59,632 nt of DNA from Ignavibacteriales bacterium (lineage in GTDB: Bacteria > Bacteroidota > Ignavibacteria > Ignavibacteriales > Ignavibacteriaceae). The notes beneath the pieces are model-generated. The model was given only the letters and a program-made list of their open reading frames with translations, was not told where the DNA came from and did not search any database. The stretch covers positions 1-59,632 of the forward strand of contig JACPGF010000149.1 of the NCBI GenBank assembly GCA_016182615.1, read 5' to 3'. This document shows positions 38,558 through 59,491 of this stretch, piece after piece. The position numbers were made by a program, and so were the translations under genes. Position 1 is the stretch's first letter. The number at the start of each line of letters is the position of its first letter.

Positions 38558-41500
38558 GTGAAGAAACTCTTCTTACTTCTTCTCTTATTGACTACATTTG
38601 TATTCTCACAAGTGGAAGTCAGTACCCGTCTTACGCGCGCGATCCAAAACAGCAAGTCAAATGAATATGTGCGTGGTCTTATCCTACTGAAAGATCAAGT
38701 TGATATTGAGGCTTTGGATGCGCGTTTGTATAAAGAACACGTCACGCTGGAGCAGCGTGCATATACGGTAATTACTGCTTTGCAGGAAGTAGCTGCACGC
38801 AGCCAAGGTAATTTAACTTCATATCTGGAACAACAAAAAGCTTCGAGAAAAGTATTCTCGTATCAAAAGTTCTGGGTTGCCAATATGATTCAAATTGAAG
38901 CACAACCTGAGGTATTTCAGGCGCTTATGGGAAGTATGGAACTCTCCCAGATGGATTTGGATGCAGAATTACAATTTGACCGTCCGGTAATAACCAGCTT
39001 TAATACCGAAGGAACGGAATCGGTTGAGCCTGGTGTAAAAATAATTAATGCAGATAAACTGTGGAGATTAGGCATCACGGGCCAGGGACGAATCGTTATG
39101 AATATTGATACGGGTGTTGAAAAGAACCATCCGGCAATCAATTATAAATGGCGCGGAACCCACGTTCCTGCAAACCAGGCTTGGTTTGACCCGGCAGGAT
39201 CGACCACCCCGACCGATTGTGACGGCCACGGAACACATACCATGGGCACCATGTGTGGTTTTTCGCCAACAACCGGTGACACTGTTGGTGTTGCTATTAA
39301 CGCTGAGTGGATTGCTGCAAAAACCATTTGCACAAGCCCGCACACCTCAAATTCAGTTGCTGCTTTCCAATGGGCAATGAATCCGGATGGTGACCCGAAC
39401 ACTATAACCGATATGCCTGATGCAATTAGCAGCAGCTGGTATGATCCTGATGTTTCTGACGAATGTAACGGTATTTACAAAACCACATTGAATGCAGTTG
39501 AAGCAGCCGGTATTGCCGCGGTATTTTCTGCAGGCAACAGCGGGCCATCGGCATCAACCATTACGAAACCGAAAAACATCAATACAGACGAAACCAATGT
39601 TTTTGCAGTTGCTGCTATCAGCGGTGCTACATATCTTGGTGGAAGCAATGATCCTATCGCGAGTTTTTCAAGCCGCGGCCCTTCAGTATGCGGCGGCACA
39701 GGTGCATTATTAATTAAACCCGAAGTTGCAGCTCCCGGCGTTTCAGTCCGTTCTGCTTATCCTCCTACCGGTTATACCAGTATGGACGGAACTTCGATGG
39801 CTTCACCTCACGTTGCAGGTGCTATTGCATTACTCAGGTCTTTTGCACCGACATTAACCGGCAAACAGATTAAGCTTGCTTTGTACAACACGGCAAAGGA
39901 TCTTGGCGCGGTTGGCGAAGATAATAATTATGGACGTGGCCTTATTGACGTGTATGCAGCATACATGACAATGGGTACACCTGATACCATTCCCCCAACC
40001 CCGACAACCGATTTGTCAGTTACAGAACCTACTTCAAACGGTTTAAAAATTACTTGGACCGCTCCGGCTGATACATCTCCAAGCGGCGTTGTTGGTTATA
40101 AAATCAGATACTCTTTAACCCCGATAACCGACACGACATCATATAACAATGCTATGCCGGTACCTTTTAACACGATGCCTAAACCGGCAGGGCAAACAGA
40201 GGCTGTCCGCGTGGATAGTCTGGTTCCTGCAACCACGTATTATTTTGCTCTTCGGTCAAGAGATGTTTGGGGCAACTGGTCAGTACTTTCAAATGTTGCT
40301 TCAGGCGCTACTTTAGCAGCTCCGGTAGCACTTACCACTCCTGACAGTGTTAAAAAAGTACTTGTCCCTCAGCAAATGGTTGTTGACAGTGTTATGATTA
40401 AGAACAATGCCGGTGTACCATCTACTTTAGGTTACTTGGTTACCATGACAAACAACACCTTCCCTCAGGGAATGCTTGAAATGGCTTTGGCTCCTATCAC
40501 CCGTCAGGGAACCGAAAACCTTGCAAACGTAAAATCGACCGGTAACGAAACTTTCTTCGGTCAGTCAATCGAAGGACAGGGCGGACCCGATTCTGCAGGA
40601 TATAAATGGATAGACAGTGACGAACCAAACGGCCCTCAGTATGTGTGGAATGATATTTCCACTACAGGCACTGCAGTAACCGCGTGGACCGCAACCGGAA
40701 CCTTTGATCCGAAAGACGAAGGATATGCCGGACCATTTACCTTTGGTTTCCCGTTCAAGTTTTACCGTCAGGCTAAAACACAAGTATATGTTTCGTCAAA
40801 CGGTGCATTACTATTTAATGTGCCTACCGCGAACATTTTCACCAATGCGGCAATTCCTACTGTTGCTGCTCCGAATGAATACATCGCAGCTTTCTGGGAT
40901 GATCTTGACGGACGTACACAGGGAACAGTACACTACAAAGCGGAAGGTGATAAATTTATCGTTCAGTTTACCAACTGGCAGAAATATTCAGCTACCGGCT
41001 CTTTAACATTCCAGTATGTATTGTATCCAAGCGGTAAAATCATGTTCTATTATAATAACATGAACGCAACATTAAATAGCGCTACTGTTGGTATCGAAAA
41101 TGCAACCGGTACAACCGGTTTACAAATTGCGTATAATGCAACCTATGTTAAAAACAATTTAGCAGTTAAAATTTCTGCTGAACCTGACTGGTTGAATGCA
41201 CAAAACCTGGCAGGTATGCTCTATCAGGGTAACAGTGCTGCTATCCGTTTAGTTTTCCGTTCAGAAGATTATCCTGCCGGTAACTACGGCATGGATTTGA
41301 ACATCCGCACAAACGATCCGGCACACCAATTAATTACCATACCGGTTCGCATGGTTCTCAATCATCCGGCCGTGCCTATTACTGTTACTGCTCCAAATGG
41401 CGGTGAAAACTGGCAGGCTGGTTTAACCAAGAACATCACTTGGAATGCTAACGAAGTTGTTAATGTTAATATTAAATATACAACCGATAATGGCTCCTCG

Positions 41501-43186
41501 TGGCTTGCAGTTGCAGAGGGTGTTTCTGCAGCAGCAGGTACCTATGCTTGGACAGTTCCGGCAACTCCTTCCACACAGTGTAAAGTGCGTGTCAGCGCAG
41601 CCCTTGCTGATTCTATTTTTGATGTAAGCAATGCCAACTTTACCATTAGTGCGGGTGCAATTACCTGGTCTTCTGTTGTTAATGTAAAAGACAACAGCAC
41701 ACTCAATCAGAACCTTACTTTCGGTTTGGCACCAACTGCCACCAACGGTATTGATGCTGCATTAGGCGAAGTATCTCTTCCACCGGCACCTCCGGCTGGT
41801 ACCTTTGATGCCCGTTTTGAATTGCCGTTAACTCCGGCTGACTACTCATGGAAAGATTACCGTAACGACACGTTACAATCAGTAGCATGGGTTGCTAAAT
41901 TCCAACCGGGTGCTTCAGGTTATCCTTTCACGTTTACATGGAACCCTGCAACATTACCAGCTGGTACTTTTATGCTTAAAGATGCTGTTACTGGCACATT
42001 AGTTAATGTTGACATGAAAACAGTCGGTACATACACATTAACAAATACCGGTATCAGCAGCTTAAAGATAGAGTTCACGAAACAGTCAACCATCCCGATG
42101 ACCTTCGCTTCCGGTTGGAACATGTTCTCAGTTCCTTTGGTAGCGGCAGATATGACCGCAGCTACAATATGCTCGGGCGCTAACTCGAATGTTTTCGGCT
42201 ACGGAACATCCGGTTATACCTCAGCAACTACTTTAGGAAATGGTAAAGGCTACTGGGTACGTTATCCTTCAGCTTCAACTTACAACATGAACGGCTCACC
42301 GGTTTCCGGTAATACCATTGCACTTGCTGCAGGCTGGAATATGATTGGACCATACAATTGGAATGCAACCGTCAGCGGTATTACCACTGTTCCGGCAGGC
42401 ATTATCAATTCATCGTTCTTTGAATATAATAACGGTTACGTGCAAGCTACTATGTTACAGAAGACAAAAGGCTACTGGGTACGCACATCTGCTGCCGGCA
42501 CCATGACGCTTCCTGCAACCGTGGCAAAAGCGGGTGAAGTTGTTATTGCAACTGCTCCTAAAGACTGGTCACGGATAATTATTACCGATGCTACCGGTGC
42601 GCAACAAACATTATATGCAGCTCAGGTTGGTCAGGAATCAGCAGCCTCTGCATTTATTCTGCCTCCGGCACCTCCGGCAGGTATTTTTGATGTACGTTAT
42701 GCTTCAGACAAAAATGCAGAAGTATTTGCAGCTCAGCCTGTAAGCGTGCTTATCAACGGCGCTCAGTATCCTGTTAAAATTCAGGTTGTTGGTATGGATG
42801 TTACTCTGTCTGACAATTCAACCAATGGTAAACTTGTTAGTGCTAACCTGAAAAACGGTGAGTCTTATACCCTTGCAAACAGCGGTGTATCCTCGGTTGT
42901 TTTCAGCACCAGCACTAAACCGATGAGCTATGAATTGTTGCAGAACTATCCGAACCCATTCAACCCTTCAACAACAATTAAATTCGGATTACCGGAAAAA
43001 TCAAATGTAACTTTAACCGTCTTTAACCAGTTAGGCGAAAAGATCGCGGTTCTTGTTTCAGGCGATAAAGAAGCCGGTTTCCATACCGTTGAATGGAATG
43101 CAGCTAATCAGGTATCAGGCGTTTATTTCTACGAACTGAAAACCGATAAGTTTACTTCTATCAAGAAACTTATTCTGATGAAGTAA
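38558..43186 (+). CDS. Secreted subtilisin-like S8 peptidase with FN3-like and other beta-rich domains and a T9SS C-terminal sorting domain
   Basis: 1542 aa with GTG start, AAGGAG Shine-Dalgarno and signal peptide. Catalytic motifs NIDTGV (Asp), DGHGTHTMGT (His), GTSMASPHVAG (Ser). C-terminus NYPNPFNPSTTIKF...GVYFYELKTDKFTSIKKLILMK. Confidence 0.9.
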   Translation: MKKLFLLLLLLTTFVFSQVEVSTRLTRAIQNSKSNEYVRGLILLKDQVDIEALDARLYKEHVTLEQRAYTVITALQEVAARSQGNLTSYLEQQKASRKVFSYQKFWVANMIQIEAQPEVFQALMGSMELSQMDLDAELQFDRPVITSFNTEGTESVEPGVKIINADKLWRLGITGQGRIVMNIDTGVEKNHPAINYKWRGTHVPANQAWFDPAGSTTPTDCDGHGTHTMGTMCGFSPTTGDTVGVAINAEWIAAKTICTSPHTSNSVAAFQWAMNPDGDPNTITDMPDAISSSWYDPDVSDECNGIYKTTLNAVEAAGIAAVFSAGNSGPSASTITKPKNINTDETNVFAVAAISGATYLGGSNDPIASFSSRGPSVCGGTGALLIKPEVAAPGVSVRSAYPPTGYTSMDGTSMASPHVAGAIALLRSFAPTLTGKQIKLALYNTAKDLGAVGEDNNYGRGLIDVYAAYMTMGTPDTIPPTPTTDLSVTEPTSNGLKITWTAPADTSPSGVVGYKIRYSLTPITDTTSYNNAMPVPFNTMPKPAGQTEAVRVDSLVPATTYYFALRSRDVWGNWSVLSNVASGATLAAPVALTTPDSVKKVLVPQQMVVDSVMIKNNAGVPSTLGYLVTMTNNTFPQGMLEMALAPITRQGTENLANVKSTGNETFFGQSIEGQGGPDSAGYKWIDSDEPNGPQYVWNDISTTGTAVTAWTATGTFDPKDEGYAGPFTFGFPFKFYRQAKTQVYVSSNGALLFNVPTANIFTNAAIPTVAAPNEYIAAFWDDLDGRTQGTVHYKAEGDKFIVQFTNWQKYSATGSLTFQYVLYPSGKIMFYYNNMNATLNSATVGIENATGTTGLQIAYNATYVKNNLAVKISAEPDWLNAQNLAGMLYQGNSAAIRLVFRSEDYPAGNYGMDLNIRTNDPAHQLITIPVRMVLNHPAVPITVTAPNGGENWQAGLTKNITWNANEVVNVNIKYTTDNGSSWLAVAEGVSAAAGTYAWTVPATPSTQCKVRVSAALADSIFDVSNANFTISAGAITWSSVVNVKDNSTLNQNLTFGLAPTATNGIDAALGEVSLPPAPPAGTFDARFELPLTPADYSWKDYRNDTLQSVAWVAKFQPGASGYPFTFTWNPATLPAGTFMLKDAVTGTLVNVDMKTVGTYTLTNTGISSLKIEFTKQSTIPMTFASGWNMFSVPLVAADMTAATICSGANSNVFGYGTSGYTSATTLGNGKGYWVRYPSASTYNMNGSPVSGNTIALAAGWNMIGPYNWNATVSGITTVPAGIINSSFFEYNNGYVQATMLQKTKGYWVRTSAAGTMTLPATVAKAGEVVIATAPKDWSRIIITDATGAQQTLYAAQVGQESAASAFILPPAPPAGIFDVRYASDKNAEVFAAQPVSVLINGAQYPVKIQVVGMDVTLSDNSTNGKLVSANLKNGESYTLANSGVSSVVFSTSTKPMSYELLQNYPNPFNPSTTIKFGLPEKSNVTLTVFNQLGEKIAVLVSGDKEAGFHTVEWNAANQVSGVYFYELKTDKFTSIKKLILMK

Positions 43187-43228
43187 TTATGCATTATGAG
43201 TGATGAATTATGAGTGCTTAGCGCAGAG
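43187..43228 (+). repeat. Tandem heptamer array, 6 units (TTATGCA TTATGAG TGATGAA TTATGAG TGCTTAG CGCAGAG)
   Basis: Starts at the first base after the peptidase TAA stop (43184-43186). Confidence 0.7.
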
Positions 43229-43285
43229 TGCTAAATTTTTATACACGAGTAATTCGTAACAAGTAATTTTATACGATGATATAGC

Positions 43286-43317
43286 AAAGCCCCGCCACAA
43301 GCGGGGCTTTGTTGTTA
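43286..43317 (+). terminator. Rho-independent terminator after the S8 peptidase gene
   Basis: AGCCCCGC-CACAA-GCGGGGCT hairpin followed by TTGTTGTT. Confidence 0.7.
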
Positions 43318-43584
43318 CATGGCATTTTTGTGAATAAAAAATAGCGGGGTATTGCATCCAGGCTTACCTTTGTTGCGCAGAGTATCCTAACAGCAACGGG
43401 TATAACATCGCTGCCTCACGAGGGCGATTTCTTTTTCCTTAAGGACTCGCTGTTAAATATTTGCATTTCGATGATGATTGAGCACCACTTGAATATTGCC
43501 GAAAGTGAAATAGCCATCATGATAAGTGTAACAACAAATGACAACTGAAGAAGTATAACGAAATTCCCATCGTCTATCCTCAGA

Positions 43585-43692
43585 CTAAAGAGGCTGTGTT
43601 AAAACTCAAATTTTTTTGAAATTTATTTCGATGTTAAGCTGAAATCGAAGAATATAAATGCTTGACAAGGGGTTTTAACACAGCCTCTAAAG
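43585..43692. repeat. MITE-like element with 21-bp perfect terminal inverted repeats around a 66-bp core
   Basis: CTAAAGAGGCTGTGTTAAAAC (43585-43605) is the exact reverse complement of 43672-43692. One arm recurs at 59492-59510. Confidence 0.55.
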
Positions 43693-43811
43693 TCTTGGGT
43701 TAGGTGATGGAAACCGGTATAGATGTGAGACAAATAGTTACTGTTAGGAAAGCACCTTTTTTATATGGCTTTATTCGTATCTTTGTACAGGAAATTTTGA
43801 AAGAGAGAAAT

Positions 43812-44567
43812 ATGTCAACACTCGCTTGTCCTTTATTGGCGTTTCTACTCGCGGCAAACTTTTTTTCGTGTAACAGCAAAAAACAAACAGATTCCACGCC
43901 GGTCGTTTCCGATCCGGGCATTGTCCTGTTATCCGAGAAAACATTGCCGGTTCCGGAACCTTCAGCACTTGCCTATAATGCAAAAACCAAAACCTTGTAC
44001 ACGGTGTCCGATCAAAACGGAATCATTTATGAAATGTCACTCGCCGGGGAAATTATCCGGGAGATACCGGTTACAAGTTCCGATCTAGAAGGAATAGCAT
44101 TTTCAGCAAATTTCGACACGATTTATGTTGCCGAAGAGCGGACGTATCAGATAGTTGCATATTCTTTGACCGGAGTTAAGTATGATTCCTGGAAAAATGT
44201 AACATCTTCTGACACGAAAAATGGATACGAGGGAGTAACGGTAAACGCCGCGGGAAATTTTGTTGTGTTAAATGAAAAACTGCCCATGCTGTTGCTTGAA
44301 GCTGACAAACAGGGCAATGAAATAAAACGGAATGAATTGGCTTATACAAACGATATTTCGGATATTTGTTTTGATGCTGCAGAGAACTGCTACTGGATTG
44401 TCAGTGATGAATCAAAAAAGATTCTAAAATTGAAGCCTGATTATACTTTGATAAACTCATGGTCGGTAAATGTGGCTCAGGCAGAGGGAATCGCGGTTAC
44501 TACCGATGAAATTTATGTTGTTTCGGATTCGGATCAGAAATTGTTAATTTACAAGAAACCCAAATAA
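43812..44567 (+). CDS. Lipoprotein, SdiA-regulated-like beta-propeller family
   Basis: Start at ATG 43812 gives MSTLACPLLAFLLAANFFSCNSK, a lipobox-like signal with Cys. EPSALAYN...LYTVSD...DLEGIAF...YVAEER...YEGVTV...AEGIAV is reminiscent of the SdiA-regulated domain, from memory. Confidence 0.55.
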   Translation: MSTLACPLLAFLLAANFFSCNSKKQTDSTPVVSDPGIVLLSEKTLPVPEPSALAYNAKTKTLYTVSDQNGIIYEMSLAGEIIREIPVTSSDLEGIAFSANFDTIYVAEERTYQIVAYSLTGVKYDSWKNVTSSDTKNGYEGVTVNAAGNFVVLNEKLPMLLLEADKQGNEIKRNELAYTNDISDICFDAAENCYWIVSDESKKILKLKPDYTLINSWSVNVAQAEGIAVTTDEIYVVSDSDQKLLIYKKPK

Positions 44568-44606
44568 TAAAGCAATACTGCCTTATCTAATTATCAAAAG
44601 GATATA

Positions 44607-46196
44607 ATGAAAAAAAATGCACTACTTGTTCTTTTCCTGCTCTCATTGTTAATCGGTGAGAAGGCTTTTGCACAAACCCTTGTGATGAATGAAATTTATT
44701 CAAGGGGCGTTACAGCAGATCCGGATTGGATCGAGTTGTACAACCCATTCCCGGCACCACTTGATATAACAGGCTATAAGATTTATGACAGCGGCGGACA
44801 GACAGGCACCAAACCCAAGCATACCGCTCCTGCCGGTACAATTGTTCCGGCAAATGGCTTTCTGGTAGTTGTCGTGGATGTTTCCGATTCAAGCGGTTTT
44901 GGTTTAAGCAGTAGCGGTGAAACCGTATGGCTTGAGAATGCAACAGGAACGGTTATCGACACGATCGCATTCCCTGCATTAGGTATTGATACATCATACG
45001 GCAGAAAACCCGATGGTTCTGCAGCTTGGCAAAAACTGACACCAACTACTAAAGGCACAAGCAACAGCGGAACTATAGTGCTGCCACTATCGATGAATGA
45101 AATCTATTCAAGAGGTGTAACTGCTGATCCCGACTGGATTGAAGTCTATAACCCGAATACCTCAGCCCTTGATATTACCGGATATAAAATTTACGATGCA
45201 GGTGGCCAGAGCGGCACAAAACCTAAAAAAATATTTCCGGCAGGCACAAGCGTACCTGCAAAAGGCTTTTTTGTTATAGTAACCGATATTCCTACGGCAA
45301 CAGATTCTAGCGGATTTGGATTAAGCAGCAGCGGTGAAACCGTATGGTTAGAAAACGCCGGGGGAGCAATTATTGACTCAATAGCTTTCCCTGGATTAGG
45401 AATTGATACATCCTACGGCAGAAGACCCGATGGAGCTGCTGTATGGCAAAAACTGACACCAACTACTAAAGGCACAAGTAATGCCGGAAGTGTAGTGGCA
45501 GCATTGGTTATGAATGAAATATTCGCGAGGGGTGTTCCTGGTGATTTGGATTGGATTGAAATTTATAACGGCCATTCCGTATCAGTTGATTTAACCGGGT
45601 ATAAAATATACGATAGCGGTGGACAGGTCGGCACAAAGCCAAAAAAGGTTTTCCCGGCTGGCGTAGTTATTCCGGCAAAGGGTTTCTATGTTATAATTAC
45701 CGATGATACCGATTCAAGCGGTTTTGGGCTTTCAAGTTCCGGTGAGGATGTGTGGTTAGAAAATGCGGTCGGCACGGTTATCGATCAGGTAAAATTTCTT
45801 GCTACTGCAAATGTAACACAATCTTACGGCCGCAGCCCCGATGGAGCGACATGGCAAATTTTAAATATTATAACAAAAGGCACATCGAACGGAACAAACG
45901 GGATTTTGGATGAAGCATCCCCCGCGAGTAATTTTGCACTGGCACAAAACTATCCCAACCCGTTTAACCCTTCAACGGTAATTAATTACCAGTTAGCGCA
46001 GAGCGGCTTTGTCAGCTTAAAGGTGTATAACCTGCTCGGTAAAGAAATTGCAACCTTAGTAAACAGCCCACAGGCTGCCGGGAACTATTCCCTCAATTTC
46101 TCAACCGATCAATACCACCTGGCAAGCGGCGTGTATATTTACATCTTAAAGGCCGATGGTTTTACATCGACAAAGAAGATGGTACTCATCCGGTAA
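44607..46196 (+). CDS. Secreted protein with three tandem lamin-tail (LTD) domains and a T9SS C-terminal sorting domain
   Basis: 529 aa with signal peptide. Three ~130-aa repeats (nt 44679-45062, 45087-45479, 45504-45890) each start L(V/S)MNEI(Y/F)(S/A)RGV..D.DWIE(L/V/I)YN. C-terminus NYPNPFNPSTVINY...GVYIYILKADGFTSTKKMVLIR. Confidence 0.75.
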   Translation: MKKNALLVLFLLSLLIGEKAFAQTLVMNEIYSRGVTADPDWIELYNPFPAPLDITGYKIYDSGGQTGTKPKHTAPAGTIVPANGFLVVVVDVSDSSGFGLSSSGETVWLENATGTVIDTIAFPALGIDTSYGRKPDGSAAWQKLTPTTKGTSNSGTIVLPLSMNEIYSRGVTADPDWIEVYNPNTSALDITGYKIYDAGGQSGTKPKKIFPAGTSVPAKGFFVIVTDIPTATDSSGFGLSSSGETVWLENAGGAIIDSIAFPGLGIDTSYGRRPDGAAVWQKLTPTTKGTSNAGSVVAALVMNEIFARGVPGDLDWIEIYNGHSVSVDLTGYKIYDSGGQVGTKPKKVFPAGVVIPAKGFYVIITDDTDSSGFGLSSSGEDVWLENAVGTVIDQVKFLATANVTQSYGRSPDGATWQILNIITKGTSNGTNGILDEASPASNFALAQNYPNPFNPSTVINYQLAQSGFVSLKVYNLLGKEIATLVNSPQAAGNYSLNFSTDQYHLASGVYIYILKADGFTSTKKMVLIR

Positions 46197-46945: not shown

Positions 46946-49336
46946 TTACCGCAAATTCCGGAAGCTATTGCTTAATTTGGATTTATTCCGAGAGAGTAAA
47001 TGTGGAGCCGGCGGGTTCGGCTCAATCCGCTGGCGGTTCGCATCTCCCGAAATTTTAAAATGTGAAATTGATTCTTTTAGATGCGTTGTCATGTTTATAA
47101 GGTTTTCTACCAGTCTGGCAATTTGTTCAGCACCTTCAGCGGTTTGCCGGGTAACAAGGTTAATGCCTTCCATATTTTTGCTGATTTGCTCAGCAGTTGA
47201 AGACTCCTCTTCGCTTGCAGCGGCAACATGGGTAATAACATCAGAAACTTTGTCTGTTTCGGTAATTATCTCTTTCAATGAAGAATCGGCCTGTTGGGCA
47301 AGTAAACGGCCAGTCTCGACTTCATGAGTACTATTACGCATGGACTTGACGGCATCGGCTGTATCAGTTTGAATTTGATGAATCATTTGGGCAATTTCTT
47401 TTGTTGCTTTCGAGGTTCGTTCCGCGAGTTTCCGGACTTCATCCGCGACAACCGCGAAACCACGGCCTTGCTCGCCGGCACGGGCAGCTTCAATTGCAGC
47501 GTTAAGAGCCAGCAGATTCGTCTGATCGGCAATTTCTTCAATTACTTGAACTATTTCTCCGATTTGATCGCTGTTATTCCCTAACGTTTCTATATTGGCG
47601 GCTGTGTCTTGTACAACCTTAGAAAGATGCGTCATACTCTCGATGGTTTTCGATACAATAGTACCACCTGATACAGCCTTTTTCCCTGCGGATTTTGCCG
47701 CATCAGAGGCTTGAGCTGTGTTTTGTGACGTTTCAAGTATCGTACGGGTCATTTCCTCGATAGCTGACACAACTTCATCTGTTTGTGCCGATTGCTCATG
47801 TGTTCCGGCTGCCATCTGATTTGTAAGTGAAGATATTTCAGTGCCGGTATTCGAGGTTTCCTGAATGATTTCATACAAAGTCCCGATCAGGTCGCGCAGG
47901 CTTTTTATAACATTATTAAAACCACGGAACAAAAAACCAACTGCATCATTATTCTCATTTTCCATCGAAATATTCAAATCACCTGTGGCTAATTTTTCCA
48001 TTTCGACCAGAAGGCTGTCAACACTATTCTGCAGGTAAAGGTTCGCGTAAACATGACAATTCTCTTTTTTGTTAAGGTTATTAAAAATGGCCATTGCCAT
48101 TTCCCCGCAATTGTTATATCCGCATGCTCCGCAGTTCAACTCGTCCTTTGGCTCAGTTTTTAGCATATCAGCATAAATATTTCTTGTTTGCAGTTCGTCA
48201 GGTTTCTTTAGCCGTTTCACTTCGTCAGATATAGAGAGGTTTGTATATTTCCTGTTGTAGATTTCCGGCTTCCAGAATTTTTTTACTGCTCTTTGGAGCC
48301 GCCGTTTCGCGAAAAACGAGTGTTGCAATAAACCTTTTTGTTTATACCTTTTCTGCATTTCAAGGTTTCGCTTTTCAATAGCCGATTCAATTTCATCTTG
48401 TGTTTTTCCTTTTGCAGTTCCGGTTCCCCCGTTGCAGCCAAGTTCACAATTCAAACAATCTATTAGCAGCGGAGCCGAGCCATTTTGAATGTTTTCATTA
48501 AGGTGGGCAAGATAATGATAGACTGTTTTAGGCCCTTCTATTTTACGGCTGACGTTTACAATACTAGGCACTTCACGTTGAGCTGTTCTTAACAGACCTC
48601 CCGGTGTTGAAAAAAGGACAGCTCTTTCAGCAGGCACATTATCAAAGTCTATTTTGGGAAATGCATGAAGGGATATTTGCTTTTCTTTTAGATAATCACT
48701 AATCTTTGCAAGAGTAACGTTATAATCACCCAATCCGACTTCCTGAAATTCACGCTTCTTTGCTACACAGGGCGATATTATCAAGGTTTTCATTCGCGAA
48801 AAGGATGGATAATAGTGGCGGATCATCTTTATCGTATGCATCATCGGGCTGTCTGCAGGTGCGAGATACTTGAGTAATTCCGGATGATAAATTTCGATAA
48901 AACTAACAATTGCAGGACACGGCTGAGAAATAACAGCTTTGGGCTTGTGCGCTTTTATATGCTGCAAATAACTTTCTATGGTCAATTCAGCACCAAGACT
49001 GACATCGAATATTGCAGCAACACCAAGCGATTTTAACCATCCGTTAAAATTAAGATATTCCTCAGGGAAAACAGCGGCTATCGCGGGTGCCACAACTGCA
49101 ACAATTTGTTCCCTGTTCTTCAAGTCCTTCATGGCAAGTTCAAAATCATCAATAATCGTGCGGGCATTTTGCGGGCATATTTCAATACACTCACCGCATC
49201 CAATGCATAACTCCTCGTGCAGGCTTACATGATCTCCGGATCCGTTGTTACAGAATTTAACCGGGCATACAGCAATACATCGGTGGCAATTAAGACATTT
49301 GTCTTTATTGACATCAACAACTTTAGATAAATTCAT
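46946..49336 (-). CDS. Soluble methyl-accepting chemotaxis protein with N-terminal [FeFe]-hydrogenase-like sensor module
   Basis: 796 aa. Two ferredoxin-type motifs ([24 protein letters not shown]). H-cluster-like motifs [31 protein letters not shown]. Extra Cys motif [17 protein letters not shown]-terminal MCP signalling domain [34 protein letters not shown]. No obvious TM helix. Confidence 0.85.
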
Positions 49337-54887: not shown

Positions 54888-55429
54888 GCTTTTACTTTTT
54901 TTCACGGTCAATCTATTCTTTCTGTTTGTGCAATTTGATTTTATAAGATAGAAAACATGCAAAAGTAATACAATAATCCGGATTAAAAACCATGATAAAC
55001 TGCTTGTACATGATAGGAAAAATGGTGCGGTTAATCGTGTAAAACTTGCAAAAAATTGCTCCGGCAAAAAAATAAAAGTACGTAAGAAAAAATATGCAGG
55101 TTTTACAACAGCAAACAACACGTATCTTTGAGCAAAAAAAGTTTTTACACGCGGTAAAACGTAAAATATTTTTTAACAACGTTATAAGCATGTAAAATTT
55201 TCTTTTAACCTGCCAATTGCTATGTATGTATAGTTTATCCGCTTATAAAGCGGATAGAAAGTATATAACCGGTTTGCAGCCGGATATATTTTTAAAAAAT
55301 TTAAAAAAATATTCCCTGTATTTTTCTGATTAATGAAAAAATATTTTTTGAAATGTTGCATATTAACAAAACATCATTTATATATGTATTATATTTGCAA
55401 AAAATAATTTATTTATTAGAAAAATTTGT

Positions 55430-56503
55430 TTGATTAGCGACCGTTTAAATGTAGTAATAACCTTCAACGCGAAACCGGAAAACAACTCTTCCGCCGCATC
55501 GTTGTCCCCTGAAGTTCCTCATCAAGAATCTCCTGCTCCCTCTACACTGTATGATGACCAATTTGCAGAGTGGGACTCGTGGGAAACCATACATGCAGTT
55601 GAAGCTGCACTCGCTACAAAACATCATGTACAGCTTGTAGAAGCGACTCCCGCTGCACTGCAAACATTAATTGATAAAAAACCCGACATCGTTTTTAATA
55701 TTGCCGAAGGATATCATGGTATAAGCCGCGAGGCACAGGTGCCCGCGCTGCTTGATATGCTTAATATCCCTTATTCGGGGTCAGACCCGTTAACTTTATC
55801 AATTTGTTTGGACAAAGCCCGCACGAAAGAAATTTTAAGTTTTCACAACATACCCAATGCGCGGTTTATCAATGCTTATTCGGCTGCAGATGTTGCAAAT
55901 CATCAACTTCAGTACCCTCTTATCGTAAAACCGGTTGGTGAAGGTTCCGGCAAAGGTATATTTGCCTCGTCATACGTTGAAGACGAACAGTCTCTGCTGC
56001 GTGAGGTTGAACGGATTACTACAGAGTACAAACAGCCCGCGCTGGTTGAAGAATTTTTAAGCGGCCGCGAGTTTACCGTGGCAGTAATGGGTAACGGCAA
56101 AACGGCAAAAGTCCTGCCCATCATCGAAATTTCATTTGCCGGTCTGCCTGAAGGCACAGTGCCAATGTACTCGTACGAGACTAAATGGGTATATGATACA
56201 AAAGACAATGATTTGGATATTCACCATTGCCCCGCCCCGGTTAGCGATGAACTTGAAAAACGGATAAGTGAAATTTGCCTTGCCGCGTACAATGTTTTAC
56301 GGTGCCGTGACTGGAGCCGTATTGATGTCCGGTGCGATAAAGACGGTAACCCGCATATTATCGAGATAAACCCGCTGCCGGGCATATTACCCGACCCCGC
56401 GGATAACTCGTGCTACCCGAAAGCCGCCCGCACAGCCGGATATTCTTATAATGATATGCTGCTCTCGGTGCTTGATGCCGCCCGTGAAAGATACGGCCTA
56501 TGA
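55430..56503 (+). CDS. ATP-grasp ligase, D-alanine--D-alanine ligase-like family (paralog 1)
   Basis: 357 aa with TTG start per the ORF track. PDIVFNIAEGYHG..REAQVPALLDMLNIPYSGS, KPVGEGSGKGI, EEFLSGREFTVAVMG, RIDVRCDKDGNPHIIEINPLPG. Confidence 0.8.
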   Translation: MISDRLNVVITFNAKPENNSSAASLSPEVPHQESPAPSTLYDDQFAEWDSWETIHAVEAALATKHHVQLVEATPAALQTLIDKKPDIVFNIAEGYHGISREAQVPALLDMLNIPYSGSDPLTLSICLDKARTKEILSFHNIPNARFINAYSAADVANHQLQYPLIVKPVGEGSGKGIFASSYVEDEQSLLREVERITTEYKQPALVEEFLSGREFTVAVMGNGKTAKVLPIIEISFAGLPEGTVPMYSYETKWVYDTKDNDLDIHHCPAPVSDELEKRISEICLAAYNVLRCRDWSRIDVRCDKDGNPHIIEINPLPGILPDPADNSCYPKAARTAGYSYNDMLLSVLDAARERYGL

Positions 56504-57537
56504 AACCTGAACCGCTTAACGTGCTGCTCTGCTATAACTCGCCTGTTACCCTTTACACTAATTACTCCGGTAAAGAGCGTGAAGATAACTCCATTCCGGA
56601 TGACAATTCAGAGACATGGTTTGAACACGGTATGCAGGAAATGGTATCGGTACTGCGGGAGCATTTTAGCAATGTAACCACTACCACCATCAATGGCAAT
56701 GTTTACGAGTCTATCGACAAGTTACGTTCATTAAAGCCCGATGTTATTTTCAATCTGGTTGAAAGCATCGAGGGAAACACTGAATTTGAAGCCTACCACG
56801 AGGGTTTGTATGAACTGATGCAGGTGCGGTACACGGGTAATATCCCTGTCTGCACGGCAAACTGTTTGAACAAATTCCGTGCGAAGCAATTATTAAAAGC
56901 ATACGGCCTGCCGGTTCCCGGAGCTGCCGTCTGGAACACTGGAATGAAGCCCGAACATTGTATGAAGGGGCTGCAATTTCCGGTTATTACAAAATTATTA
57001 ACAGAAGACGCGAGTATTGGCATTAGCGAACAAAGTGTTGTGCATGATATGGAAGCCCTTGAAACACAGTGCGCATTTCTTGCAGAGCATTTTCATCAGC
57101 CGGTGCTGATTGAAGAGTACATAGAGGGGCGGGAGTTTAATATTGCTGTACTGGGCAAACAGGTTTTGCCCGTTAGTGAAATATGTTTTGACGGTCTTCC
57201 GGAAAATTTTCCAAAAATTGTAACGTATGAAGGAAAATGGATGGAAGACAGTGTGTATTATCGTCATACGGTTCCGCAATGCCCGGCAAACATTACCGTT
57301 GAGCTGCGTGAAAAGCTGCAAGCTTTAGCACGCCACGCTTACGAGGTGATGCAATGCCGCGACTATGCCCGGATTGATGTCCGGACAGATAAGCATGACG
57401 CACCGTATGTTATAGAAGTTAACCCTAATCCCGATTTATCCTCGGACGCGGGGTTCGCGCGGGCTGCAAAAGCGGCTGGCTTAAGTTACTCTCAATTGCT
57501 TAAAACCATTGTGGATTTTGCACGTGAACGTAACTGA
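56500..57537 (+). CDS. ATP-grasp ligase, D-alanine--D-alanine ligase-like family (paralog 2)
   Basis: 345 aa with ATGA overlap with paralog 1. PDVIFNLVESIEGN, EEYIEGREFNIAVLG, RIDVRTDKHDAPYVIEVNPNPD. Confidence 0.8.
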   Translation: MKPEPLNVLLCYNSPVTLYTNYSGKEREDNSIPDDNSETWFEHGMQEMVSVLREHFSNVTTTTINGNVYESIDKLRSLKPDVIFNLVESIEGNTEFEAYHEGLYELMQVRYTGNIPVCTANCLNKFRAKQLLKAYGLPVPGAAVWNTGMKPEHCMKGLQFPVITKLLTEDASIGISEQSVVHDMEALETQCAFLAEHFHQPVLIEEYIEGREFNIAVLGKQVLPVSEICFDGLPENFPKIVTYEGKWMEDSVYYRHTVPQCPANITVELREKLQALARHAYEVMQCRDYARIDVRTDKHDAPYVIEVNPNPDLSSDAGFARAAKAAGLSYSQLLKTIVDFARERN

Positions 57538-58012
57538 ACCTATCCGTTTATTGCAGGCGGAAGACCGCCCGGCAATTGTTGAGATGCTGCAAAAAACAGA
57601 AATCTTTTATGGCGAAGAAGTAGCAATAGCCTTAGAGCTTATTGATACTGCACTTGCCCTGCCGGGTCAGGAAGATTATTACATCTACGTGTATGAGCAC
57701 GAAGGCAAAGCCGCAGGTTATCATTGCACGGGCAGGCGCCCGTTAACCGATGGCGTTTTCGACTTGTACTGGATTGTTGTTGATCCTGCAGGGACAGGCG
57801 GCGGTTTTGGTTCAGCTTTGCTGAAACATGCCGAGGCTCTCGTGCAATCCAAAGGCGGCAGATGGATACTTGCTGAGACTTCTTCGCGCAAACAATACGA
57901 TAAAACACGGAATTTTTATAAAAAGCATAACTATCAGATTCTGGCACACATCCCCGATTTTTATAAAATGGGTGATGGCATGGTAGTGTACGGCAAGAAT
58001 TTTACGGAATAA
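57509..58012 (+). CDS. GNAT family N-acetyltransferase
   Basis: 167 aa. YWIVVDPAGTGGGFGSALLKHAE resembles acetyl-CoA motif A (Q/RxxGxG/A). The exact start is uncertain, because the listed start overlaps the upstream gene by 29 nt. Confidence 0.75.
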   Translation: MWILHVNVTEPIRLLQAEDRPAIVEMLQKTEIFYGEEVAIALELIDTALALPGQEDYYIYVYEHEGKAAGYHCTGRRPLTDGVFDLYWIVVDPAGTGGGFGSALLKHAEALVQSKGGRWILAETSSRKQYDKTRNFYKKHNYQILAHIPDFYKMGDGMVVYGKNFTE

Positions 58013-58024
58013 ACAGGAACATCT

Positions 58025-59212
58025 ATGGAACTCTGGCAACAGATGATTCGAGACAGTGTGCACACTGTCGATCAGCTTGTAGAAAATTTCGGTATGGACC
58101 GGAATGAGGCTGAAAAACTGAATGAGTTTTTTCAGGTACGGATTAATCCGTACTACCTGAAACTTATCAGATACAAGGGCGATCCGATCTGGCAGCAATG
58201 CGTGCCGGATATTCAAGAGTTGGAGGACATTGATGCTCCAGAGGATCCATTGAATGAAGATGCGATGAGCCCTGTTCCAAACATTACCCACCGGTACCCT
58301 GACCGTGCACTATTCTTAACCACAAGCCAGTGTGGTTTATACTGCCGTTTCTGTACCCGTAAACGTAAAGTGGGCAATTCCGAAAAAATTTCGATGAAAG
58401 GCCTTGAAGCCGCATTTACCTATCTTGAGCAGCATACGGAAATCCGTGATGTTATCATGTCCGGCGGCGATCCGCTGATGCTCACCGATACCATGCTCGA
58501 GAAAATCATCAAACGGCTGCGCCAGATACCACATATTGAAATTATCCGCCTTGGCACCAAGATGCCCTGCGTTCTGCCGCAGCGTATTACCCAGAAATTG
58601 GTTGATATGCTGAAGAAATATCACCCGATTTACGTTAACACGCATTTTAACCATCCCTGGGAGATAACCGAGGAAAGCTCCCGTGCCTGCGCTTTGCTTG
58701 CCGATAACGGCATTCCCGTGGGCAACCAGATGGTGCTGATGAAAGGGGTTAACGATGACCACGTGGTTGTTAAAGACTTGATGCAGAAACTCCTTAAAAT
58801 ACGCGTACGGCCCTATTACATCTATATGGCAGACGAAACCAAGGGTGCGAACCATTTTAGGACAACAGTAGCCAAAGGGCTTGAAATTATAGAACATTTA
58901 CGCGGATGGACCAGCGGGCTTGCCGTTCCCCATTTTGTGATTGATGCACCCGGCGGCGGCGGAAAAATTCCATTGCTGCCCAATTATGTTTTGCACATGG
59001 ATGACCAGAAAATTGTTCTGCGTAACTTCCAGAATAAAATTTACACGTACCGTAACGGTACTCCCCACCCGAAAATTATGCCGGTTATCTTTAACAAAAA
59101 GCGCATAGAGCGCAAGCGTGAGCTTGCCCGAAAACTGCTTGAGGTAAATACTACCGGAAAAACCAGAAAAATTACACTTCCCGTACAGGAAGTTGTTGAG
59201 GAGAAGGTTTAA
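58025..59212 (+). CDS. Lysine 2,3-aminomutase (KamA-family radical SAM enzyme)
   Basis: 395 aa. Radical-SAM cluster CGLYCRFCTRKR, SGGDPL, and PLP-lysine region (HFNHP...). Length and motifs are typical of KamA/AblA. Confidence 0.9.
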   Translation: MELWQQMIRDSVHTVDQLVENFGMDRNEAEKLNEFFQVRINPYYLKLIRYKGDPIWQQCVPDIQELEDIDAPEDPLNEDAMSPVPNITHRYPDRALFLTTSQCGLYCRFCTRKRKVGNSEKISMKGLEAAFTYLEQHTEIRDVIMSGGDPLMLTDTMLEKIIKRLRQIPHIEIIRLGTKMPCVLPQRITQKLVDMLKKYHPIYVNTHFNHPWEITEESSRACALLADNGIPVGNQMVLMKGVNDDHVVVKDLMQKLLKIRVRPYYIYMADETKGANHFRTTVAKGLEIIEHLRGWTSGLAVPHFVIDAPGGGGKIPLLPNYVLHMDDQKIVLRNFQNKIYTYRNGTPHPKIMPVIFNKKRIERKRELARKLLEVNTTGKTRKITLPVQEVVEEKV

Positions 59213-59491
59213 GCAGAGTTTCATCTCATCCCCGGAAGGTAATTCCGGGGCAGGGATACAATAAAACATAGCCCGAAAGCATCACGTCACCATTTTGCAG
59301 CCAAAAGATTTGAACAAAATACAGCATCCGGCAAAGTTGATAATTTGCTGCAAACAGGAAAATTTTCTTTTTAAGCACCAGATCATACTCCTCTTTTAAT
59401 TATCCTGCAATTACTAATTGTACTTGGGTTGCAGTCGGGTAGTTTTCGCACCTTTCATTCGATAAAAAAAACTCAAAAGCCCCCCTCCTTG

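Follow-up and report, generated by a model that had tools for sequence, protein, structure and literature searches.

A compact group of four genes lies at positions 55430-59212 of the window, the 59,632-nucleotide (nt) stretch of DNA from an Ignavibacteriales bacterium (assembly GCA_016182615.1, contig JACPGF010000149.1) that was analysed as a whole. The four open reading frames (ORFs) are on the + strand, virtually without intergenic space, and encode two ATP-grasp ligases, called AG1 and AG2, a small GNAT acetyltransferase and a KamA-family aminomutase. They are read here as one pathway that would build a small, amide-linked derivative of beta-lysine, with a probability of roughly 0.65. The evidence comes from co-conservation and fusion of the genes, the substrate-binding residues of the aminomutase and the catalytic residues of the ligases. 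The genes are as follows, with protein lengths in amino acids (aa):

55430-56503, + strand: AG1, ATP-grasp ligase, 357 aa, TTG start
56500-57537, + strand: AG2, ATP-grasp ligase, 345 aa, ATG start
57509-58012, + strand: small GNAT, 167 aa, TTG start (longest ORF)
58025-59212, + strand: KamA-family aminomutase, 395 aa, ATG start

AG1 and AG2 overlap by 4 nt (ATGA), AG2 and the longest GNAT ORF by 29 nt, and a gap of 12 nt separates the GNAT from the aminomutase gene. In near-identical contigs the gene callers place the GNAT start at the equivalent of 57518 or 57524, which reduces the overlap to 14-20 nt and the protein to as little as 162 aa. The TTG start of AG1 is backed by full-length alignment to homologues. 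The ORF coordinates thus agree with the initial annotation, which described four co-directional genes with overlaps of 4 and ~29 nt and a 12-nt gap, the middle overlap being 14-29 nt depending on the GNAT start; the KamA radical S-adenosylmethionine (SAM) signature that it placed in the last gene, CGLYCRFCTRKR, is present. The nearest database proteins (96% identity) are from Ignavibacteriales metagenome-assembled genomes, and the operon sequence is present in groundwater metagenomes.

Conservation and fusion of the four genes

When each GTDB species, represented by one genome, was scanned with an AG1 alignment, at least 583 stretches were confirmed; the top 80 all come from Ignavibacteria. 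The order AG1-AG2-GNAT-KamA is found in all 71 Ignavibacteria loci with sufficient downstream sequence (71/71). The four-gene arrangement is far beyond chance, and it recurs in other lineages; the co-conservation on which the initial annotation had staked its proposal is therefore seen. In a 99%-identical contig the genes 3' of the operon are unrelated, and the operon flanks vary among relatives. Therefore, the unit is exactly these four genes.

The sole other frequent neighbour in Ignavibacteria is a 748-aa ORF located upstream in 74 loci, which we take to be RecG-like from its N-terminus, read by eye. It was considered as part of the system and rejected: it is absent from the window and from loci L002 and L003, and its presence elsewhere reflects local synteny.

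Distant relatives were collected by an exhaustive HMMER search with AG1 over 1.84 billion representatives, which returned 1222 clusters at E<=1e-30. Gene fusions in this set join KamA, ligase and GNAT activities. About 44 of the best 150 representatives are double ATP-grasp fusions; locus L086 has a KamA-AG1 fusion followed by an AG2-GNAT fusion; Pfam scans show a KamA-AG1 fusion in P0253 and an AG-KamA fusion in P0349; and AG-GNAT fusions occur in the wider family (P0311, P0370, P0374). Locus L089 encodes a sigma-54 activator, then KamA, an AG1-AG2 fusion and a GNAT, and the Desulfovibrio alaskensis G20-like locus L091 has the order sigma-54 activator, KamA, AG1, AG2, GNAT. AG2 on the - strand next to KamA-AG1-GNAT is found in a contig whose AG1 falls in a protein cluster with a Nitrososphaerales-archaeon member. 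When the sequence of the GNAT structure 2R7H was used as query, homologues were found in Desulfovibrio, Oleidesulfovibrio, Woeseia and Spirochaetales, and the G20-like locus was reached by the same query.

A second clade was sampled by a metagenome scan with the Desulfovibrio-type AG1, which gave at least 554 stretches, 26 of them loci long enough to test. KamA-AG1-AG2-GNAT is present in 20/26, KamA-AG1-AG2 without a recognisable GNAT in 5/26, and one locus (L154) has only KamA and AG1 (tblastn assignment). A sigma-54 activator lies upstream in ~10-11 of the second-clade loci. Judged by gene order and fusions, the four genes behave as a co-conserved functional unit.

Several relatives have other arrangements. 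In L088 (3181-6368) a double ATP-grasp fusion and a Peptidase_S58 (DmpA/BapA family) gene show translational coupling, and neither KamA nor a GNAT lies close by; this suggests that a related system produces and trims some other unusual peptide. In a Woeseia sp. contig (L092:5360-6170) tblastn shows an AG2-type ligase between AG1 and a deacetylase gene as three fragments that lie in different frames, owing either to frameshifts in a pseudogene or to faulty assembly. In a cluster without a recognisable GNAT, AG2 is directly followed by a 511-aa ORF (L095:9047-10582) that overlaps its stop and has no match in Pfam, possibly a non-homologous replacement or an extra component. In P0369, P0373, P0377 and P0378, AG1 relatives carry a fused L-amino-acid-ligase-type ATP-grasp (PF18603, LAL_C2) instead of the AG2 paralog, which by domain composition would be another two-ligase architecture within the same family.

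The aminomutase

The last protein of the operon belongs to the KamA family, scoring 305.3 bits with TIGR00238 (cut-off 199.2). Its best equivalog model is AblA (TIGR03820), with 461.5 bits against a cut-off of 525.4; the glutamate-2,3-aminomutase model gives 429 bits (cut-off 650), the arginine-2,3-aminomutase model 346 (cut-off 600) and the EpmB model 235.3 (cut-off 369.3). Five further cluster homologues from four lineages behave in the same way, AblA being the best model at 447-473 bits, below the cut-off, and EpmB giving 231-251 bits. By these scores the enzyme does not group with the EpmB type that modifies elongation factor P (EF-P), a possibility that the initial annotation had named as fatal to its proposal.

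The sequence matches the lysine 2,3-aminomutase (LAM) of Clostridium subterminale, 2A5H, with E=3e-121. The three cysteines of the CxxxCxxC cluster motif (C103, C107 and C110) are kept in 129/129 cluster homologues, and the pyridoxal phosphate (PLP) lysine motif GGGGK314 is present in the window protein. R112, D270 and D307, which correspond to LAM R134, D293 and D330, are invariant in 129/129 cluster-linked aminomutases. We take LAM Arg134, Asp293 and Asp330 to bind the carboxylate and the epsilon-ammonium of lysine. Their retention supports lysine specificity, and by these residues the enzyme falls with the lysine 2,3-aminomutases as against the glutamate and arginine aminomutases.

The two ATP-grasp ligases

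AG1 and AG2 are paralogs, as the initial annotation proposed, and share 36% identity over 281 aa (E=2e-56). The D-alanine--D-alanine ligase (Ddl) C-terminal domain PF07478 is found in both, with E=5e-37 in AG1 and E=6e-32 in AG2. The Ddl-like N-terminal motifs also proposed were not recovered, since the Ddl N-terminal domain is not detected by Pfam profile in either protein, though the AG1 model matches Ddl over its full length. AG2 has weak RimK and TTL Pfam matches (E=2e-5 and 3e-4). With the best Ddl model, PRK01372 (cut-off 243 bits), AG1 scores 193.7 and AG2 155.6, and both are far under the cut-off of every other Ddl and Van model. A sequence search with AG1 against the Protein Data Bank (PDB) finds Ddl at E=2e-33, and an AlphaFold (AF2) model of AG1 with a pLDDT of 83.7 superposes by Foldseek over its whole length on Ddl, with a TM of 0.70-0.86 and ~25% identity.

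The active sites were compared with E. coli and Y. pestis Ddl, using the numbering of E. coli DdlB. The equivalents of K97, K144, K215, R255, D257, E270 and N272 are invariant in AG1 and AG2 across 82 Ignavibacteria loci. In the metagenome loci the ATP-grasp catalytic residues are kept in 70-80/80 (K215 in 70/80), and E270 shows a conservative change to Asp in some distant loci. Both proteins are thus members of the ATP-grasp superfamily by catalytic residues and fold.

The D-alanine site, defined by DdlB S150, Y216, G276 and S281/L282, is conserved in neither ligase. Y216 is Trp in both. AG1 keeps the S150, G276 and S281 equivalents, in its own clade only, and probably the E15 equivalent as well: after a disordered insert at residues 19-45 it has an invariant A-E-[W/F]-D motif (residues 46-49) that opens the first helix, where Glu15 stands in Ddl. 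The AG2 acceptor pocket is altered, with Ala at S150, Asp at G276 and Ala-Gly at S281-L282. This comparison of the pockets with Ddl is qualitative and does not justify predicting the partner amino acid from pocket residues. The Ddl-type fold and the kept catalytic residues fit small amino-acid substrates. AG1 and AG2 are probably active amino-acid-type ligases with specificities other than that of Ddl, and the database label Ddl is probably wrong for them. By BLAST and a neighbour-joining tree, the AG1 and AG2 types fall into separate orthology groups, one of each per system, and their split appears to be that of ancient paralogs.

The acetyltransferase and an accessory deacetylase

The third protein belongs to the GNAT superfamily by fold profile (PF13508, E=3e-10, 40.6 bits, cut-off 27; PF00583, E=4e-8, 33.9 bits, cut-off 20.7) and by its acetyl-CoA-binding motif, the glycine-rich GTGGGFGSALL that aligns to PDB 2R7H. 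An AblB-type model was not matched in the NCBIfam scan at E<=0.01. The only NCBIfam matches are rimI, AAC(6') and PRK03624, all far under their cut-offs, the best being rimI at 31.7 bits against 86.4. Among structures, only 2R7H is close (E=1.5e-23); this structural-genomics entry bears the label "putative D-alanine N-acetyltransferase" and is the GNAT Dde_3044 of the homologous D. alaskensis cluster. The initial annotation had likened the aminomutase and the GNAT to the pair AblA and AblB; the first half of this likeness survives to the extent that AblA is the nearest model, below its cut-off, and the second half does not, 2R7H being the closest relative of the GNAT.

About 9 second-clade loci, including L121, L122, L135, L158, L161 and L170, contain an inserted protein that has a GNAT-like domain at its N-terminus together with a domain of the histone-deacetylase fold (e.g. 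L161:7189-9441). Among known structures, acetylpolyamine amidohydrolases come closest to the deacetylase domain (E=5e-71 to 2e-61), an indication of a small-molecule N-acetyl-alkylamine. In L161 and L170 this protein is also fused to the 2R7H-type GNAT of the cluster; such a fusion of a deacetylase to an acetyltransferase is unusual.

The Desulfovibrio alaskensis locus

A published study of D. alaskensis G20 (PMC8836040) annotates Dde_3040 as a sigma-54 regulator, Dde_3041 as L-lysine 2,3-aminomutase, Dde_3042 and Dde_3043 as "D-alanine--D-alanine ligase" and Dde_3044 as a GNAT. These ligases also carry the Gene Ontology (GO) term "cell wall organization" there. Dde_3041-3044 are all expressed and drop together under copper stress, with log2 fold changes of -1.3 to -2.7, and the adjacent Dde_3040 rises (PMC8836040). 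A sigma-54 enhancer-binding protein with a weak receiver-domain match lies directly upstream of KamA in Desulfobacterota-type clusters (L089:4892-6349, L091:2874-4310). The LysX regulon of D. alaskensis (PMC4045070) was also considered; it is unrelated to the module. Na+/H+ antiporter genes are found near the module in two loci only, adjoining it in L086 and ~4 kb off in L092.

An ordered transposon library exists for D. alaskensis G20 (PMC4045070). Since the organism carrying Dde_3040-3044 is genetically tractable and the crystal structure of its GNAT (2R7H) is available, the question is directly testable.

A proposed pathway and its alternatives

Substrates, order of steps, product and physiological role are predicted here from the gene content, its conservation, the fusions, the active-site residues and the co-expression in G20. 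The KamA-family enzyme would convert L-lysine to beta-lysine by radical-SAM/PLP chemistry, the step for which the case is strongest. AG1 and AG2 would then each form one amide bond, in an ATP-dependent reaction via an acyl-phosphate intermediate. AG1 is the likelier ligase to handle beta-lysine because the AG1 type is fused to KamA in other lineages, and AG2 may work on, or next to, an acetylated intermediate because the AG2 type is fused to the GNAT. The GNAT would acetylate a primary amine that is free, and the epsilon-amino group of the beta-lysine moiety is the most plausible site. Where a lineage has an acetylpolyamine-amidohydrolase-like enzyme, the acetyl group can probably be taken off again and would have a protecting or regulatory function. 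The pathway would end in a molecule resembling a di- or tripeptide, with beta-lysine or N-acetyl-beta-lysine as a constituent.

A lysine 2,3-aminomutase and two distinct Ddl-fold ligases make up the core, joined by a GNAT in most systems and by a deacetylase in some. Acetylation looks like a tailoring or protecting step and not part of the core, because about a fifth of second-clade clusters have no GNAT. The pathway for an acetylated beta-lysine peptide put forward in the initial annotation is partly supported, by the co-conserved unit, the probable lysine specificity, the ligases that look competent and the fusions; the analogy to AblB and the osmolyte idea are not supported, and the GNAT turns out to be absent from some clusters. 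A compatible-solute role under salt stress is possible, without support at this locus: the host is a groundwater organism.

Some of the evidence weighs against the proposed pathway: i) no product has been observed, and the substrates of AG1 and AG2 cannot be assigned from sequence; ii) the order of steps, and the amine and carboxylate used, would have to be read from the fusion patterns alone; iii) the GNAT is missing beside 5-6 of the 26 second-clade clusters, so acetylation is not universal; iv) relatives of the ligases occur without KamA, with an S58 peptidase in L088 and alone in L090, and therefore not every member of the ligase family is tied to beta-lysine; and v) neither the groundwater habitat nor the window, in which there is no transporter or stress regulator, gives a direct pointer to physiology.

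Two different ATP-grasp activities that are always paired or fused are also a feature of two-site polymer synthetases. The ligases might iterate and give an oligomer or polymer, such as oligo-beta-lysine or a cyanophycin-like branched polyamide, one of them lengthening the main chain and the other attaching branches to it. Acetyltransferases and acetylpolyamine-amidohydrolase-like enzymes, sometimes fused, would suit the control of charge on such a polycation by acetylation and deacetylation, and the double ligase of one relative adjoins an S58 (DmpA/BapA-family) peptidase. The Ddl-type fold, however, forms a closed pocket for two small amino acids, no primer-binding or additional domain is found by Pfam in AG1 or AG2, and no dedicated depolymerase or export gene is conserved beside the module, so that a polymer product is unlikely. 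It is quite improbable that the target is a protein or peptide, with an ATP-grasp enzyme attaching beta-lysine to a side chain or terminus in the manner of EF-P beta-lysylation or RimK tailing and a RimI-like GNAT acetylating the same target. The KamA family does include EpmB, rimI is the top NCBIfam match of the GNAT (far below its cut-off), and AG2 has its weak RimK/TTL matches; but the aminomutases fall well short of the EpmB cut-off (231-251 bits against 369) and score highest with AblA, neither an EpmA/LysRS-like gene nor a small conserved substrate ORF is found in or beside the module, the nearest fold is that of Ddl, a free-amino-acid ligase, and the accessory deacetylase is closer to small-molecule acetylpolyamine amidohydrolases than to protein deacetylases. 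The same parts occur in the contig attributed to Nitrososphaerales archaea, which to our knowledge lack bacterial EF-P.

Since the KamA homologue is nearest to AblA and public annotation names the ligases D-alanine--D-alanine ligase, the locus could be imagined as classical acetyl-beta-lysine synthesis with two ordinary cell-wall ligase genes upstream by chance. This is very improbable: the ligases miss every Ddl cut-off and have no detectable Ddl N-domain profile, both have Trp for Y216 and AG2 also lacks S150, G276 and S281, they are strictly co-conserved with KamA and the GNAT and fused to them in other lineages, the GNAT is not AblB-like, and some clusters keep both ligases without it. The module is also present in a contig of the Nitrososphaerales type, and we know of no murein in such archaea. 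A catabolic role, with KamA at the entry to lysine fermentation or degradation and the other enzymes acting on the intermediates, is hardly credible. Clostridial KamA starts lysine fermentation, and the homologue resembles 2A5H (E=3e-121), but genes for beta-lysine 5,6-aminomutase, 3,5-diaminohexanoate dehydrogenase or a cleavage enzyme are found neither in the window nor in the conserved neighbourhood, and ATP-consuming ligases are anabolic.

The synthesis of a small amide-linked beta-lysine compound thus remains the preferred reading. A broader form of it, for which the balance of evidence tips slightly in favour, is that of a widespread pathway in Bacteria and Archaea to a new beta-lysine metabolite, for example an N-acetyl-beta-lysyl di- or tripeptide. 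It would be made by a new subfamily of Ddl-fold ligases mislabelled as D-Ala-D-Ala ligases and would have its own physiology, with sigma-54 control in Desulfobacterota and a removable acetyl group in some lineages. If true, this would add a new branch to beta-amino-acid metabolism and probably a new small molecule, and a systematic misannotation as D-alanine--D-alanine ligase would be corrected. The module reaches across hundreds of Ignavibacteria species, Desulfobacterota, Woeseia and a contig attributed to ammonia-oxidising archaea.

Flanking DNA and other genes of the window

Two features of the flanking DNA may bear on expression of the operon:

55122-55429, + strand: candidate promoter region, AT-rich spacer of ~300 nt with sigma-70-like hexamers
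59230-59250, + strand: inverted repeat, perfect 8 bp, G+C-rich, CCCCGGAA-GGTAA-TTCCGGGG, 18 nt past the KamA stop, read from the sequence

The best sigma-70-like site in the spacer, at 55363-55392, is TTAACA-18-TATTAT, which matches 10/12 hexamer positions. The count of promoter-like sites in the spacer is not above the shuffled expectation, which makes it a weak promoter candidate. A divergently oriented DUF1801 gene lies beyond it. The scan for a riboswitch or RNA leader gave no Rfam family above threshold. The inverted repeat is possibly a terminator hairpin without a T-run; the terminator scan did not report it because there is no T tract. PADLOC gave no meaningful match to anti-phage defence.

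Elsewhere in the window, genes at 38558-46196 (+ strand) encode secreted proteins with type IX secretion system (T9SS) C-terminal sorting domains, including a 1542-aa subtilase and a protein with three lamin-tail domains; such sorting domains fit an organism of the Bacteroidota/Ignavibacteria group. A 796-aa protein at 46946-49336 (- strand) combines N-terminal 4Fe-4S ferredoxin motifs, the [FeFe]-hydrogenase large-subunit domain PF02906 (E=4e-31) and the C-terminal chemotaxis signalling domain PF00015 (E=1e-54). From this domain order it looks like a hydrogenase-like sensory chemoreceptor.

Comparison with known systems

The AblA/AblB pathway to N-epsilon-acetyl-beta-lysine occurs in methanogens, green sulfur bacteria and Pelobacter (cited in PMC3543383); the Pelobacter paper deals with classical ablAB only. 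The module resembles it in having a KamA-family aminomutase with the lysine-binding Asp pair beside a GNAT, with AblA as the top equivalog model. It differs in that two obligatory ATP-grasp ligases are added, the aminomutase falls under the AblA cut-off, and the GNAT belongs to another, shorter subfamily (2R7H type) that is dispensable in some clusters and is not linked to salt here. With Ddl and VanA the module ligases share the full-length fold (TM 0.70-0.86) and the ATP-grasp catalytic set, but they have inserts in the N-domain and the omega-loop region, and the acceptor site of AG2 is rebuilt. They lie beside a lysine aminomutase gene and not among cell-wall genes, and they also occur in a contig with an archaeal link.

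In the synthesis of the dipeptide NAGGN (Ngg/AsnO) and of NAA and NAAG in animals (NAT8L with RIMKLA/B), a GNAT acetylates an amino acid and an ATP-grasp enzyme extends it. By analogy, the module may follow the same acetylate-then-ligate logic, and its relatives include GNAT-ATP-grasp fusions, as in Ngg. Its ligases, however, are of the Ddl type and not the RimK type, its beta-lysine would come from a dedicated radical-SAM mutase, and there is no amidotransferase in the operon, unlike the NAGGN system with AsnO. In the PylB/PylC pair a radical-SAM lysine mutase is followed by an ATP-grasp ligase that couples the resulting amino acid with another amine. The likeness, a radical-SAM rearrangement of lysine with ATP-grasp ligation, would be a functional analogy only: PylB is not of the KamA family, PylC is not among the PDB sequence matches of AG1, and the module has no PylD. 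EpmB, like the module aminomutase, is a KamA-family enzyme, and it supplies beta-lysine for an amide bond, as is predicted for the module, but the EpmB score is under its cut-off, the module ligases are ATP-grasp enzymes and not LysRS paralogs, and no LysRS-like (EpmA) gene is present in the window neighbourhood or the conserved flanks.

Judged by their defining tests, the AblAB, Ddl and EpmAB systems do not include the module. A paper describing the four-gene combination was not found in the literature searched, a provisional result as most subscription journals lie outside its coverage; within these bounds the remark of the initial annotation that no characterised pathway has such a composition stands. 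The enzyme families and their logic are thus known from other systems, and it is their combination that is, provisionally, new and widespread.

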